Source: a virus. Taken from it: DNA of 22,575 nucleotides. The notes under the pieces were generated by a model that saw nothing but the letters and a program-made list of their open reading frames with translations, searched no databases and was not told where the DNA came from. The stretch lies in UHGV virus genome UHGV-1464116; one strand, given 5' to 3'. Numbering within the stretch: position 1 is the first letter of the stretch; each line of letters begins with the position of its first letter. Position numbers and translations under genes: made by a program. Below, in pieces: positions 1 through 6,244 of this stretch.

Positions 1-55
1 CCTGATTGCAAAATTCAAAGAAGCAGGCGGAACGGTCAGAGAGATTGAGGTATGA
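1..55 (+). CDS. C-terminal fragment of upstream gene (probable endolysin), 5' partial
   Basis: Open frame from window edge (..[17 protein letters not shown]) with stop TGA at 53-55 overlapping the Rz ATG at 52 (ATGA overlap); endolysin assignment is from lysis-cassette synteny only. Confidence 0.4.
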
Positions 56-489
56 GCAGAGTAACCGCGATTATCTCCGCTCTGGTTATCTGCATCATCG
101 TCTGCCTGTTATGGGCTGTTAATCATTACCGTGATAACGCCATCGCCTACAAAGAACAGCGCGATAAGGCCGCATCCATCATCGCTGACATGCAGAAGCG
201 TCAACGTGACGTAGCAGAACTCGACGCCAGATATACAAAGGAGCTTGCTGATGCTAACGCGACTATCGAAAGCCTCCGTGCTGATGTTTCTGCTGGGCGT
301 AAGCGCCTGCAAGTCGCCGCCACCTGTGCAAAGTCAACGACCGGAGCCAGCAGCATGGGCGATGGAGAAAGCCCAAGACTTACAGCAGATGCTGAACTCA
401 ATTATTACCGTCTCCGAAGTGGAATCGACAGGATAACCGCGCAGGTTAACTACTTGCAGGAGTACATTAGGACGCAGTGCTTAAAATAA
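52..489 (+). CDS. Rz: Rz-like i-spanin (inner-membrane spanin subunit)
   Basis: 145 aa; N-terminal TM helix ([20 protein letters not shown]) followed by charged coiled-coil-like region; contains an embedded +1 frame lipoprotein ORF (Rz1), the classic Rz/Rz1 architecture. Confidence 0.85.
251..436 (+). CDS. Rz1: Rz1-like o-spanin (outer-membrane lipoprotein), embedded in Rz in the +1 frame
   Basis: Track ORF 245..436 (TTG); preferred start ATG 251 with AAGGAG 7 nt upstream; lipobox-like VSAC followed by Pro-rich [13 protein letters not shown]; fully nested inside Rz. Confidence 0.75.
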
Positions 490-707: not shown

Positions 708-1244
708 ATGAATGAATTAATTGTGAATCATGACTTTGACTTTCGCCAGTTAGTTACCGCAGCAGAAGGTCAACCGGTAACTGACACCTTCCAGATCGCA
801 AAGGCATTTGGTAAGCGTCATGCGGACGTATTGAGGGCGCTGAAAAATTGTCATTGCTCTGAAGATTTCCGGAGAGCGCATTTTTGCGTTGCCGAAAAAA
901 TCAATGAGTTAGGGATTTTCGACAAGAAACAGATTTACTACCGCATGGACTTTAGTGGCTTCGTTATGCTGGTCATGGGATTTAATGGCGCAAAAGCCGA
1001 CGCTGTTAAAGAGGCCTATATAAATGCCTTTAACTGGATGTCAGCAGAACTCCGTAAGTACAGCGAAAGTTATGAAGCAGAACGCAACGCCATAATGCTG
1101 GAGTATATGAAAGAGAAGGATGTCGCCAGTATGTCTGGCCGCCTGCTCAATCGCTGGGGAAAAATTAAGAAGCCTCAGCTACTGGCGAGAATTGAACGCC
1201 TTGAACAGCACGGGCAAACCGTAATCCCCGGGCTCACTAATTAA
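708..1244 (+). CDS. rha: Rha-family phage regulatory protein
   Basis: Track ORF 639..1244 starts at GTG; ATG at 708 (MNELIVNHDFDF...) preferred. N-terminal motif ...TDTFQIAKAFGKRHADVLRALKN... resembles the Phage_pRha domain as I recall it. Confidence 0.7.
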   Translation: MNELIVNHDFDFRQLVTAAEGQPVTDTFQIAKAFGKRHADVLRALKNCHCSEDFRRAHFCVAEKINELGIFDKKQIYYRMDFSGFVMLVMGFNGAKADAVKEAYINAFNWMSAELRKYSESYEAERNAIMLEYMKEKDVASMSGRLLNRWGKIKKPQLLARIERLEQHGQTVIPGLTN

Positions 1245-1735
1245 CGGCAGTACCGCGAAGCAACCCAAGCCAGTAAGTGGGGAAATAACACTGGCAGCCA
1301 CTGAAAGATGAACCTCCTGCCTGATGGCAAAAAAGATTCTTTGTGGTGGCGGACTGATGGAAAGACATCGGTTATTGCAGAGGCCATTCAATGAGTGGTC
1401 TCGACAATGGCTTATACCCTACACGGGATAACTTAACTGATATCCCCACAAGCGGATAAAGAGGCTCTCAATGTCCGACATCTACATCATCAAACTGAAT
1501 ACGAACGACGGCGGCGAGTAAACGGGCAAGATGCCACGACGTCAGCCTGAGCTGGTTAATGGCTTTGTGCCGCTGGCGACCTAGACGGGAGGGGGCGTAC
1601 TTCGCTCCTGCTGATGTCAAGTGCGTGTAGTTCACGCCAATATCGGTAGGTGACGATAGAACTGTGGAATAGACATGGCATTATCCTGGACGTGTAAATG
1701 TTCAATCGGAAATGCCATGCTGGTCAGTTGGTTGC

Positions 1736-1954
1736 TTAGACCTTCTTATAAGAGATAGATCTTCCGAATGGTGGATATATAGAAGTTGAATCTTTAATTT
1801 CATAAGTGGCCACTACATTTCCCGCAGCGTCCAACTCACGGTAAAGGTATTCATCGGTATCCTGACCTTTTCGAGCTCCTTTCCAGTTAGAAGAGACAAG
1901 CTCCAGTGTATGGTCATCTGGAATGCCGATTTTCTGTTTGTATTCATCACTCAT
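1736..1954 (-). CDS. Hypothetical 72-aa protein on opposite strand (candidate moron)
   Basis: ORF MSDEYKQKIGIPDD...; AAGGA 6 nt upstream of its ATG; AT-richer than flanks; divergent from the small terminase gene with only 22 bp between start codons; no family recognised. Confidence 0.5.
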   Translation of the reverse strand: MSDEYKQKIGIPDDHTLELVSSNWKGARKGQDTDEYLYRELDAAGNVVATYEIKDSTSIYPPFGRSISYKKV

Positions 1955-1976
1955 GTGAAATCCTTAAAGGTAATTT

Positions 1977-2528
1977 ATGGCACTCACCGACAAGCAAGAA
2001 ATGTTCTGTCGCGAGTACCTCATCGATTTAAACGCCACGCAAGCGGCTATTCGGGCGGGGTACAGCGCAAAGACAGCTAACCGTACCGCATCCGAAAACC
2101 TGTCAAAACCTGACATCAAGTTAAGAATCGCCGAACTGAAAGCGCAACGCAATGATCTTGTTGGTATTAATGCAGAATATGTACTTAATCGCCTTATTGA
2201 AATCGACCAGATGGATGTGCTTGACATTCTCCTGCAAAACGGTGAGCTAAAACCCATCAAAGACTGGCCTAAGGTATGGCGCACAACGCTATCAGGAATG
2301 GATGTCGTGGAGATGGTATCTGCAGATAGCGCCGCACTTCTGAAGAAAATCAAATGGCCTGATAAGGTTAAAAATCTTGAATTGCTTGGGCGTCATGTTT
2401 CTGTTCAGGCGTTTAAAGACAACGTCAAAAATGAAGTTACTGGCGCTGATGGAGGACCAGTCATAACAGAAATTACCAACTTAACGCCGGAGCAGGCTGC
2501 AGAGGCGTATAGAAAAATGATGGGCTAA
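1977..2528 (+). CDS. Terminase small subunit
   Basis: N-terminal motif [25 protein letters not shown] typical of Terminase_2-type small subunits; immediately precedes the large terminase. Confidence 0.85.
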
Positions 2529-2530
2529 GT

Positions 2531-4153
2531 ATGCCGTTACCATTTCCCTTCGATTTTAAACATCCTGATTACCAGATGGTTTTTGAATGGCGGATGGAAC
2601 GCCTACAGCGCATTCGCCAGAATCCTGAAATATTGCCTGCACTAAAACAGTTTTACCGAACCAATCCGGCTCAGTTCATCATCGACTGGGGCATGACAAC
2701 GGACCCGCGTAATATTGATTATGGCCTGCCGGTGACCATTCCGTTTTTACTCTTCCCTAAGCAGGAGGAGTGGATCCACTGGATTATGGAACGCTGGAGC
2801 AATCGGGAGAATGGTATTACCGAAAAATCCCGTGAAATGGGACTTAGTTGGACCGCGATCGGACTGGCCTGCTCGCTTTGTCTCTTCAACAAAGAAATGG
2901 TTATCGGTTTCGGCTCCCGTAAAGAGGAATACGTCGACAGCACCGGTGACCCGAAAGCATTGTTCTGGAAGGCGCGCAAGTTCGTGGAAACACTACCTGT
3001 AGAGTTTCGTGGTTCGTGGGACGAGAAGAAGCATGCGCCGTATATGCGCGTTGAGTTTCCAGATACTGGCGCGGTTATCAAAGGCGAGGCTGGCGACAAT
3101 ATCGGACGTGGTGACCGTACCACGCTCTACCTGGTGGATGAAGCTGCATTCCTCCAGCGTCCTCTGTTGATTGATGCGGCGCTGTCGCAAACCACCCGTT
3201 GCCGTATTGACCTGAGCTCGGTTAATGGCATGGCGAACCCGTTCGCGCAGAAGCGCCACGGCGGAAAAATACCAGTATTCACGTTCCACTGGCGAGATGA
3301 CCCGCGCAAGGATGAAGAGTGGTATCGCAGGGAGTGCGAGAAAATCGACAATCCGGTGGTGGTGGCGCAGGAACTTGACCTGAACTACAGCGCATCTGCG
3401 GAAGGCGTCCTGATCCCGTCCGACTGGGTACAGGCTGCCGTCGACGCGCATATCAAACTTGGTATTCAGCCAACGGGCAAGCGACTGGGCGCGATGGACG
3501 TCGCCGACGAAGGCCGGGACAAAAATGCCTTTTCGACCCGTCACGGCTTCCTTCTGGAGAACGTGCGTGAATGGTCCGGCGTTGGCAGCGACATTTACCA
3601 GTCTGTTGAGAAGGTCTTCGGCTTTTGCGAACAGGACAACCTCGAAGAGTTTCGCTTCGACGAGGACGGTCTGGGTGCTGGCGTTCGCGGCGATGCGCGC
3701 GCCATCAACGAACTGCGTAACGCTGCGCGACGACCGTCAATACTCGCCACACCGTTTCGTGGTAGCGGCGCGGTATTTGATCCGGACGATGAAGCGGTGC
3801 GCGGGGACAACGGACAGGCCGCACGCCTGAACAAGGACTTCTTCGCCAACGCCAAGGCCCAAAGCTGGTGGTGGCTACGCAAGCTTTTCCAGAACACCTA
3901 TCGCGCCGTGGTTGAGGGCATGGCCTACAACCCGGACGAAATCATCTCAATCAGCAGCGCCATGGCGAGCAAAGACAAACTCATCATTGAGCTGTCGCAG
4001 CCGACCTACTCCATTAATGGCGTGGGGAAAATCGTTGTTGATAAACAGCCTGATGGCACCAAGTCGCCGAACCTCGCCGACTCGGTGATGATCAGCTACG
4101 CGCCAATGAATTCAGCCCTGAACATCTGGGAGCTGCTAGGGAGACAGGCCTGA
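2531..4153 (+). CDS. Terminase large subunit
   Basis: 540-aa ORF directly after the small subunit and before the portal; size and position typical of a large terminase; no motif verification possible here. Confidence 0.8.
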
Positions 4154-5622: not shown

Positions 5623-6244
5623 CATCACCGAAATAATGGATGCGCTGGAGCGCTACAGCGAAATCATCACCCCCTGGGCGACGAAGGTTGCTGAGAACTT
5701 TACCGCCGACATTGCGCGCCAGAATGAAAAGCAGTGGCGTCAGCACAGCCGGAACATCAGTGCAGAGCTGCGCAACATGGTTGACCGCGCCCCGGTAGGC
5801 CAGGTGATGAAATCCATCGTTGCCGAGCAGATTAAGTACATCAAATCGCTACCTCTTGAGGCCGCCGATCGGGTGTATGACATTCAGAACAAAGCCATCG
5901 AGGCCGTTGTGACTGGTGGCCGCGCTGAGCCATTCGCGAAAGAGATAGCTGCGTCCGGTGACGTGTCACGCTCACGAGCGAACCTTATCGCCCGTACCGA
6001 GCTTGGACGCGCAACCGGCGCGCTCGATCAGGCGCGTGCGCTGTCAATCGGCTCGAATGGTTATATCTGGCGTACAGCCGAAGATGGCGACGTCCGGCAT
6101 TCTCATCGGGAGATGGAAGGTAAGTTTGTCGAATGGGGCCGACCTCCAACGCTTGACGGTATGACCGGTCACGCTGGTGAGCTGCCGAACTGCCGCTGTT
6201 ACAAAGAAATCGTCTTCCCCAACCCTCATTCTTATCTCGCCTGA
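5471..6244 (+). CDS. Head morphogenesis protein (Phage Mu F / SPP1 gp7-like)
   Basis: C-terminal motif ...WRTAEDGDVRHSHREMEGKFVEWGRPP...HAGELPNCRCY characteristic of the Mu F-like domain; start uncertain (ATG 5471 overlaps the portal by ~150 nt; alternative ATG at 5636 after the portal stop). Confidence 0.7.
   Translation: MPKTKRRQASANLATTRQSRQAEIRYRTSLRQIARAVGDIVNGRYDGSNDSITEIMDALERYSEIITPWATKVAENFTADIARQNEKQWRQHSRNISAELRNMVDRAPVGQVMKSIVAEQIKYIKSLPLEAADRVYDIQNKAIEAVVTGGRAEPFAKEIAASGDVSRSRANLIARTELGRATGALDQARALSIGSNGYIWRTAEDGDVRHSHREMEGKFVEWGRPPTLDGMTGHAGELPNCRCYKEIVFPNPHSYLA

Follow-up and report, generated by a model that had tools for sequence, protein, structure and literature searches.

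The element studied here is the stretch at positions 1245-1976 of UHGV virus genome UHGV-1464116 (22,575 nucleotides; this whole length is referred to as the window), part of the late region of a lambdoid/P22-like prophage of E. coli. This stretch probably corresponds, in E. coli, to the 'pid' moron slot of P22, the variable interval between the post-lysis rha gene and the small terminase gene, terS. Such a slot has already been described for P22, and what is new is its cargo, a gene for a 72-amino-acid (72-aa) protein that belongs to an uncharacterised family. In outline the locus would be of an ordinary and known kind, a lysogen-expressed moron between lysis and packaging genes. By alignment, the flanks of the slot (the 3' end of rha with a 216-bp spacer on one side, the start of terS on the other) are conserved and its content is swappable; here it comprises a dead late-strand gene of the phrog_6581 family and a live opposite-strand gene for the 72-aa protein. 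The features are as follows.

708..1244: Rha-family gene, with Phage_pRha and ORF11CD3 domains
1245..1460, plus strand: conserved late-operon spacer that follows the 3' end of rha
1372..1410, plus strand: RNA hairpin, outer stem TTATTG/CAATGG, inner stem GAGGCCATTC/GAGTGGTCTC
1471..~1675, plus strand: pseudogene of phrog_6581, a late-strand family of 71-72 aa, with three in-frame stops and a frameshift
1673..1720, minus strand: terminator-like hairpin, CATGGCAUU...AAUGCCAUG, 3' of the 72-aa gene; folding z = -2.9
1736..1954, minus strand: gene for the 72-aa protein (ATG start; 8.2 kDa; isoelectric point 5.2, acidic; no signal peptide)
1955-1976: divergent intergenic gap of exactly 22 bp, read from the sequence, between the ATG of the 72-aa gene and that of terS (1977)
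1977..2528, plus strand: terS (Terminase_2, E 7e-40)
2124..2152, minus strand: putative antisense promoter, -35 TTGCGT (2152..2147), 17-nt spacer, -10 GATTCT (2129..2124)

When the region was compared with phages by BLAST, P22-like phages were matched through two flanking pieces alone. BTP1 has pid, on the minus strand, between rha and its packaging genes; P22 is annotated with orf25/orf80 in the same interval. Both phages aligned with the window at 92-97% identity from rha to about position 1430 and diverged beyond it. Just past the start of pid, they hold a decayed remnant, about 300 bp long, of the 5' end of a Terminase_2-type terS, homologous to window positions 1977-2250 (P22 NC_002371.2, locus L002, ~2209-2520; BTP1, locus L001, ~2205-2515). 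The first ~90 nt of the remnant are about 94% identical to the window, and the remainder carries substitutions and indels. P22 itself runs on another terS than the type of the remnant. Both flanks are thus homologous to those of the P22 pid locus, which marks the same insertion site. The pid site has been described as a moron locus, whose relatives have no insert or other inserts, with pid divergently transcribed and a rho-independent terminator at its end (Cenens 2013, PMC3573128). Given this and the homology of the flanks, the window holds 'another insert' at a known moron site.

The insert itself is not pid. When Pid was used as a tblastn query against 94 loci and the window, only P22 and BTP1 matched; Pid, an 86-aa helical ORFan, matches phrog_16546, whereas the 72-aa protein is unrelated to it and matches no PHROG. 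The two loci share the slot, a small gene opposite to the late operon and a 3' hairpin and, by inference for the window, a weak promoter located in sequence derived from terS and a long 5' untranslated region (5'UTR). They differ in that the terS beside pid in P22 is a dead remnant and that in the window is a working gene, so here, unlike in P22, the antisense unit overlaps the start of a live terS. The Pid/dgo effect of P22 cannot be assumed for the window.

Morons, as defined by Hendrix and Juhala, include lambda bor and other lambdoid examples between the lysis and terminase genes. Like bor, the 72-aa gene is an opposite-strand accessory gene in the late region with a deviating base composition, and is probably independently transcribed. 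Bor, however, is an outer-membrane lipoprotein, whereas the 72-aa protein lacks a signal peptide and is unrelated to Bor in sequence.

We surveyed the slot in 80 loci that encode relatives of the window terS (63 distinct terS sequences). A divergent minus-strand gene of at least 55 aa, starting at most 35 bp from the terS ATG, was found at 24 of the 63 distinct terS loci. The 27 cargo-bearing loci fell into 15 sequence clusters, one or two of which may be chance open reading frames (ORFs). Members of the 72-aa family sit in the slot, with a gap of 21-22 bp, in E. coli and also in Pantoea (L039), Enterobacter (L104-107) and Cronobacter phage phiES15; in phiES15 the gene is unannotated. The last three repeat the junction of the window with the motif ACCT(T/A)TAAGGA, and their proteins show 66-92% identity. 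The slot is empty in Shimwellia (L015) and E. coli (L016), the spacer running straight into terS. Other relatives hold something else: pid in P22/BTP1, or a 78-aa gene in L014. The moron slot proposed in the original prediction, which called for just this comparison with related prophages, was therefore borne out, relatives being empty at the site or carrying pid or other small divergent cargo. The site just upstream of a Terminase_2-type terS is a hotspot that has taken up about 15 unrelated divergent small genes at a fixed junction of 8-33 bp.

The 78-aa gene belongs to a family (MNSKQIFYRNTGHD...) unrelated to the 72-aa one, found at the same divergent spot in E. coli PD7 (L014, 2441-2677, minus strand), in L007 (4112-4348) and in other prophages. 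It gave no significant match to Pfam or PHROGs.

The coordinates and strand of the 72-aa ORF, its good Shine-Dalgarno (SD) sequence, its AT-richness relative to the flanks and its 22-bp distance from terS were all confirmed. The SD is AAGGA (complement of 1961-1965), 6 nt ahead of the ATG. It forms part of the palindrome CCTTAAAGG (1962-1970), which amounts to back-to-back SDs for the 72-aa gene on the minus strand and terS on the plus strand. The guanine-cytosine content is 40.6% for the ORF, 46.0% for terS, 50.7% for 1245-1735 and 52.8% for the whole window. The ORF thus has the base composition unlike its neighbours that is expected of a moron, the difference from terS being modest.

The same ORF was then judged against the possibility that it is a chance or decaying frame without function. 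Its product found 26 clusters in a single-sequence search (58-99% identity, 72-81 aa; from E. coli, Cronobacter, Yersinia and metagenomes) and 194 clusters across Gammaproteobacteria in a profile search, in which a Klebsiella member was listed in about 3000 index blocks of the searched collection. An exhaustive search with a hidden Markov model (HMM) of 1.84 billion representatives gave 125 clusters at 50% identity. The length of the family is nearly constant, homologues being standalone proteins of 71-76 aa. Depending on the alignment, 11-16 residues are invariant, and these concentrate in two polar loops, RKGQDTD and DSTSxYPPFGR. When nine homologues were compared by the Nei-Gojobori method, the proportion of nonsynonymous differences (pN) was 0.06-0.33 and that of synonymous differences (pS) 0.58-0.99; for the window and Pantoea L039 the values were 0.059 and 0.93, the synonymous sites being saturated. 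Since pN lies far below pS, the protein is under strong purifying selection. A chance frame would suit the missing family annotation (PGAP calls the ORF a hypothetical protein) and its rarity in E. coli, where 16 of 5426 complete genomes carry it, all at least 99.5% identical. It is contradicted, as far as sequence conservation can tell, by the 194 clusters, the constant length, the invariant residues and the low pN, and it accords poorly with a confident AlphaFold2 fold and a junction architecture kept across genera. The original prediction would have yielded to an ORF not conserved in related phages, and the opposite was found. We conclude that the ORF is a real conserved gene, far beyond chance, and give the chance reading practically no credence.

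The two start codons are only 22 bp apart, which leaves terS, or the sequence beyond it, as the only place for an independent promoter. The promoter inside terS that had been proposed for the gene is therefore logically required. Homology lends it support, as the mapped pid promoter of P22 stands in the terS remnant. In P22, that promoter was mapped by the up-mutations C-182A and C-183A in the -10 element AATCCT, by reporter deletions and by BTP1 RNA-seq (Wolput 2022, PMC8835761). The transcription start site (TSS) is nt 40880 of NC_002371.2, leaving a 5'UTR of 174 nt; in the wild type, pid expression is weak in lysogens and up in carrier cells, and there is a second, shorter pid transcript of unexplained origin (PMC8835761). 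In published data for BTP1 lysogens, pid exceeds 100 transcripts per million, which serves for the window by analogy only. We noted that the mapped promoter and the 174-nt 5'UTR both fall within the terS remnant, a point unmentioned in the pid papers (PMC3573128, PMC8835761). Since P22 retained only the terS fragment with the promoter and UTR and lost the rest of the gene, it can be argued that the fragment serves the cargo. The P22 pid promoter appears to be a fossil of a terS-embedded promoter serving the hotspot.

By alignment with P22 pid, a TSS was predicted near 2117 of the window, which would give a 5'UTR of ~163 nt antisense to terS codons 1-47. We infer by this analogy that the promoter of the antisense unit lies at 2124..2152. 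The hexamer variants AATTCT, GATCCT and AATCCT, and TTGCGT/C, recur at the homologous position in many terS genes. Apart from these, a perfect -35 hexamer, TTGACA, was seen on the minus strand at 2101-2106, within conserved terS codons for ENLSKPD, and most relatives keep it. The window has TACGGT 15 nt beyond this hexamer, which could be a second antisense start.

At the other end of the unit, the hairpin at 1673-1720 is terminator-like. UUUUAAU comes after the homologous hairpin of phiES15, and canonical rho-independent terminators stand behind the homologues in L009 and L007. Taken together, these features suggest that the 72-aa gene would be transcribed alone, in the direction opposite to the late operon, and that a weak constitutive promoter within terS (the homologue of Ppid) would drive it. 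Lysogens or carrier cells would thus produce the protein, and convergent late transcription would shut the gene off during lytic growth.

What the protein does was approached through its fold and its neighbours. AlphaFold2 run with the family alignment gave a predicted local distance difference test (pLDDT) score of 85 and a model with a helix at residues 2-9 followed by four long antiparallel strands. Such a fold resembles the cystatin/NTF2-like alpha+beta roll. The proteins of that fold share 5-15% sequence identity with the 72-aa protein (Foldseek E 0.01 or worse), and NTF2 domains are larger. Membership of the cystatin superfamily (the QxVxG loop and the like, or a profile match) did not emerge, with zero Pfam and zero PDB sequence matches, and the likeness stays at the level of the fold.

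Prophage copies of the family run antisense to the neighbouring genes. Those in the gap between lysis and terminase genes adjoin three different packaging modules, their neighbours being Terminase_2/3, Nu1/GpA, DUF2280 and a P2-like tail module; in one Pseudomonas prophage the homologue lies in the integrase-proximal region. Homologues that are 59-65% identical were found inside type I restriction-modification (R-M) operons, in the order hsdS fragment, DUF2188, homologue, hsdM, (Bro-N), hsdS, hsdR. DUF2188 has been tied to defence operons, according to a passage cited in bioRxiv 10.1101/2022.04.27.489752. One further homologue sits in a defence island between a DUF2326/MC7/CTD11 (ABC-3C-like) system and HEPN_AbiV. 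A cassette of the Vibrio vulnificus chromosomal superintegron encodes a relative that is 61% identical by tblastn (L100-L103, 5001-5219), its neighbours being HigB/HTH, acetyltransferase and Tae4/Tai4 cassettes. Remote relatives form the C-terminal domain of PIN_8 (PF18476) nucleases in the metagenomic proteins P0227, P0212 and P0162, with library-wide E values of 1.6e-5 to 5e-14. When this fusion domain was compared with the 72-aa family by hhalign, the probability was 97%, with 39% identity over 66 columns. The sole contig recovered for a PIN_8 fusion was 1.8 kb, too short to show any surrounding genes.

Two side observations belong here. P0184 and L124 were also listed among the PIN_8-fused relatives. 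In addition, in Acinetobacter and other bacteria, hsdM and the hsdS fragment enclose a conserved pair made up of the DUF2188 protein (81 aa) and a 76-80-aa relative, located as follows.

L004, L005 and L111-L113, about 5750-6240 or equivalent: DUF2188/relative pair in type I R-M operons

Whether the 72-aa protein and the neighbouring DUF2188 protein are homologous was also considered, and the idea was rejected, no similarity being detected when the two were compared. A literature search on PIN_8/PF18476 and on WP_053903632 gave nothing useful.

We regard it as about an even chance, by guilt by association, that the 72-aa product is a small binding or sensor module in mobile-element conflicts and a prophage cargo that benefits the lysogen. 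It would reside in the cytoplasm, fold as a cystatin/NTF2-like roll that bears the two invariant polar loops, and act in phage defence or its control, not in virion assembly. A part in defence against phages or in counter-defence is likely. The consistent neighbourhood signature makes this uncharacterised family a cheap candidate for phage-challenge screens.

Several observations weigh against the proposal of a lysogen-expressed gene with a part in defence. A scan for consensus promoters found zero sites upstream of the 72-aa gene, and a sigma-70 scan of the 260 nt upstream with a position weight matrix gave a best score of 10.0 against 7.9 +/- 1.9 for shuffles, none being above the shuffle expectation. 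The Ppid-like hexamers fall in codons for a conserved terS peptide, and they are equally present in terS genes without divergent cargo. The U tract behind the hairpin at 1673-1720 is degenerate. On the side of the protein, family scans with Pfam, PHROGs, PADLOC and NCBIfam gave zero matches (for the defence profiles of PADLOC-DB 2.0, 0 families at E<=1), a sequence profile search of the PDB gave nothing meaningful, and the match of the modelled fold is generic. Lastly, the defence link, being guilt by association, leans partly on homologues that are just 50-65% identical.

A different weight may be put on the antisense transcript itself. Among the 63 distinct Terminase_2 terS sequences, codons 2-30 (1980-2066) showed a four-fold-site entropy of 0.99 bits against 1.67 for codons 31-110, and pairwise nucleotide identity was 85% for the former and 63% for the latter. 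The entropy of codons 2-30 was 0.72 in loci with divergent cargo and 1.15 in those without. Candidate causes of this conservation are a pac site, a translation-start constraint, a recombination joint and the antisense 5'UTR of the cargo. In one rival reading, the RNA would be the main product and the ORF a passenger: a 5'UTR perfectly antisense to the ribosome-binding site and first codons of terS would, in a lysogen, silence leaky terS expression or that of superinfecting relatives with the same highly conserved terS 5' end, as an excludon or STnc6030 does. The 22-bp gap and the palindrome of back-to-back SDs force an overlap, synonymous variation at codons 2-30 is low and lower still in cargo loci, and BTP1 offers a precedent in STnc6030, an RNA shown by experiment to be antisense to late genes and to exclude superinfection. 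On the other hand, the ORF itself is under strong purifying selection and the 72-aa family occurs also in contexts without any terS; the synonymous constraint is present without cargo too, the two groups of loci being phylogenetically non-independent; and at the homologous P22 locus the effector is the Pid protein (PMC3573128). We therefore consider it unlikely that the RNA is the main product.

The two ideas may also be combined. The 72-aa family would then be a minimal module for conflicts (a sensor or inhibitor domain that stands alone here and is elsewhere fused to PIN_8 or paired with DUF2188) that is wired as an 'excludon' in Terminase_2 phages, with its promoter in terS and its 5'UTR over the terS start, so that expression in the lysogen silences the packaging genes of resident and superinfecting relatives. 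This combination is speculative and, like the preceding proposal, improbable; if true, it would help explain the highly conserved first 90 nt of terS.

We return to the moron slot and to the ~490 bp downstream of the 72-aa gene, which had been described as devoid of ORFs of 60 aa or more. This holds, as no such ORF lies wholly inside 1245..1735. The largest one inside is a 55-aa minus-strand ORF (1468..1635), and a 70-aa ORF with a TTG start (1179..1391, minus strand) begins inside and runs into rha. This 'non-coding' stretch consists of a structured conserved spacer, a dead gene and a terminator-like hairpin. The dead gene came to light when the 55-aa ORF was used as a tblastn query: it unexpectedly matched other loci, in which the real gene is on the plus strand. 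Intact phrog_6581 homologues (L021, 2863..3078; L043, 2586..2804; L105/L107, 5291..5509) matched with E values of 1e-33 to 1e-35. In the nucleotide alignment, the lesions of the window copy are TAA at 1519-1521, TAG at 1582-1584, a 2-nt deletion near 1591-1595 and TAG at 1628-1630; the homology of 1471-1675 to phrog_6581 is clear and its frame is broken. The suggestion that the region might prove to be a decayed gene remnant thus held for about 200 bp, the phrog_6581 pseudogene, but not for the rest, which is conserved spacer and hairpin. The 55-aa ORF, present in RefSeq as WP_187767215.1 (E. coli ETEC1702), was rejected as a gene, being antisense to the pseudogene and frameshifted in L013; WP_187767215.1 is very likely a spurious gene call.

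The presence of this remnant raises the possibility of a two-gene system, for which there is a precedent in the Pseudomonas phage JBD26. Its Tab is an 83-aa protein encoded on the minus strand next to terS, with its own promoter and prophage expression, and a small late-strand gene lies beside it (PMC10884400). The 72-aa gene is likened to Tab by position and architecture, as a small minus-strand gene next to the small terminase, but Tab sits between terS and terL, unlike the 72-aa gene. In a Tab/anti-Tab-like pair, the 72-aa protein would be a lysogen-expressed effector and the convergent phrog_6581 product a lytic-cycle antidote, whose death would leave the prophage crippled or domesticated. 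JBD26, with its minus-strand defence gene by terS and late-strand antidote, fits this scheme. So do the Enterobacter prophages L104-L107, where an intact phrog_6581 gene is convergent to the 72-aa homologue, and the window and L013, where its remnant is kept in the same place. However, phrog_6581 is also found with unrelated neighbours or none (L019, L021, L026, L028, L043), and the 72-aa family is found without phrog_6581 in Klebsiella, phiES15, Vibrio, Acinetobacter and Pseudomonas; phiES15, which has no phrog_6581, is nevertheless inducible by ultraviolet light per its record. Nor does the candidate partner accompany the 72-aa gene with any consistency, and the window copy of it is dead. 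We consider such a pair quite unlikely here, and somewhat more so than either of the antisense-RNA proposals.

The spacer at 1245-1460 is 92-97% identical in P22, BTP1, HK446 and Shimwellia. It was found, mostly unannotated, in 200 phage records, 151 of which cover at least 80% of the query; the carriers are P22-like, HK97-like (HK446) and Shiga toxin (Stx) phages, and its 3' half occurs also in lambda-like phages with Nu1/A terminases. In L014/L015 its identity holds at 86-98% although that of the rha body drops to 60-75%, and so it behaves as a conserved joint between modules. Its folding z was -3.3 for the plus strand and -1.7 for the minus strand. The 3' end, with a hairpin of TATCC (1441-1445) and GGATA (1454-1458) followed by AAAGAGG (1458-1464), is the ribosome-binding region for the next late-strand gene, whichever that is. 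The loop of the TATCC/GGATA hairpin is variable among phages and its arms are fixed. Within 1420-1460, immediately ahead of this ribosome-binding site, there are alternative overlapping pairings, GGGATA (1425-1430) with TATCCC (1441-1446) or TATCC (1441-1445) with GGATA (1454-1458).

The hairpin at 1372-1410 was examined for covariation with an alignment of eleven diverged spacer copies and an RNAalifold consensus. Seven of its 16 pairs were altered on both sides. For the three-helix structure, and also for this helix, 95.9% of the paired cells were retained as pairs against about 41% with slid partners, and none of 500 shuffles attained the observed values. The many G.U pairs are compatible with the plus strand only, which assigns the structure to the late transcript. 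The homologous hairpin is labelled 'terminator' in phage Ayreon. The element may serve as a terminator or insulator that separates the lysis module from the packaging module, or it may act there in RNA processing or stability. A hairpin backed by covariation marks the late transcript between these modules in many lambdoid phages. A minus-strand 'terminator' at 1313-1334, also annotated in phage L, was judged unconvincing, since its T run precedes a 4-bp stem.

Two further suggestions for 1245..1735, a small RNA and a packaging-related site, fared worse. The covariance-model scan of 400-2600 against Rfam gave no credible match and nothing below E=3.8, the top scores being OmrA-B at 473-557 (17.7 bits; gathering 40, E 3.8) and Proteo-phage-1 at 1226-1299 (17.6 bits; gathering 42, E 5). 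A cis-acting pac site, or another terminase recognition element, would suit a conserved and structured spacer just upstream of terS, and the nucleotide conservation at the 5' end of terS would suit pac as well, though it lies outside 1245-1976. But the same spacer is shared by phages with P22 gp3, HK97-like, lambda Nu1/A and Stx-phage terminases; being common to unrelated terminases, those of cos phages included, it is not a pac site. Moreover, the sequence from the spacer to terS is replaceable or absent, and the G.U pairs of the hairpin point to RNA and not to DNA. A packaging element in this stretch is accordingly rated very unlikely.

Two more genes were placed around the slot.

52..489: Rz
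2531..4153: large terminase gene, with the portal gene next

Six complete E. coli chromosomes carry positions 1100-2100 of the window at 100% identity.

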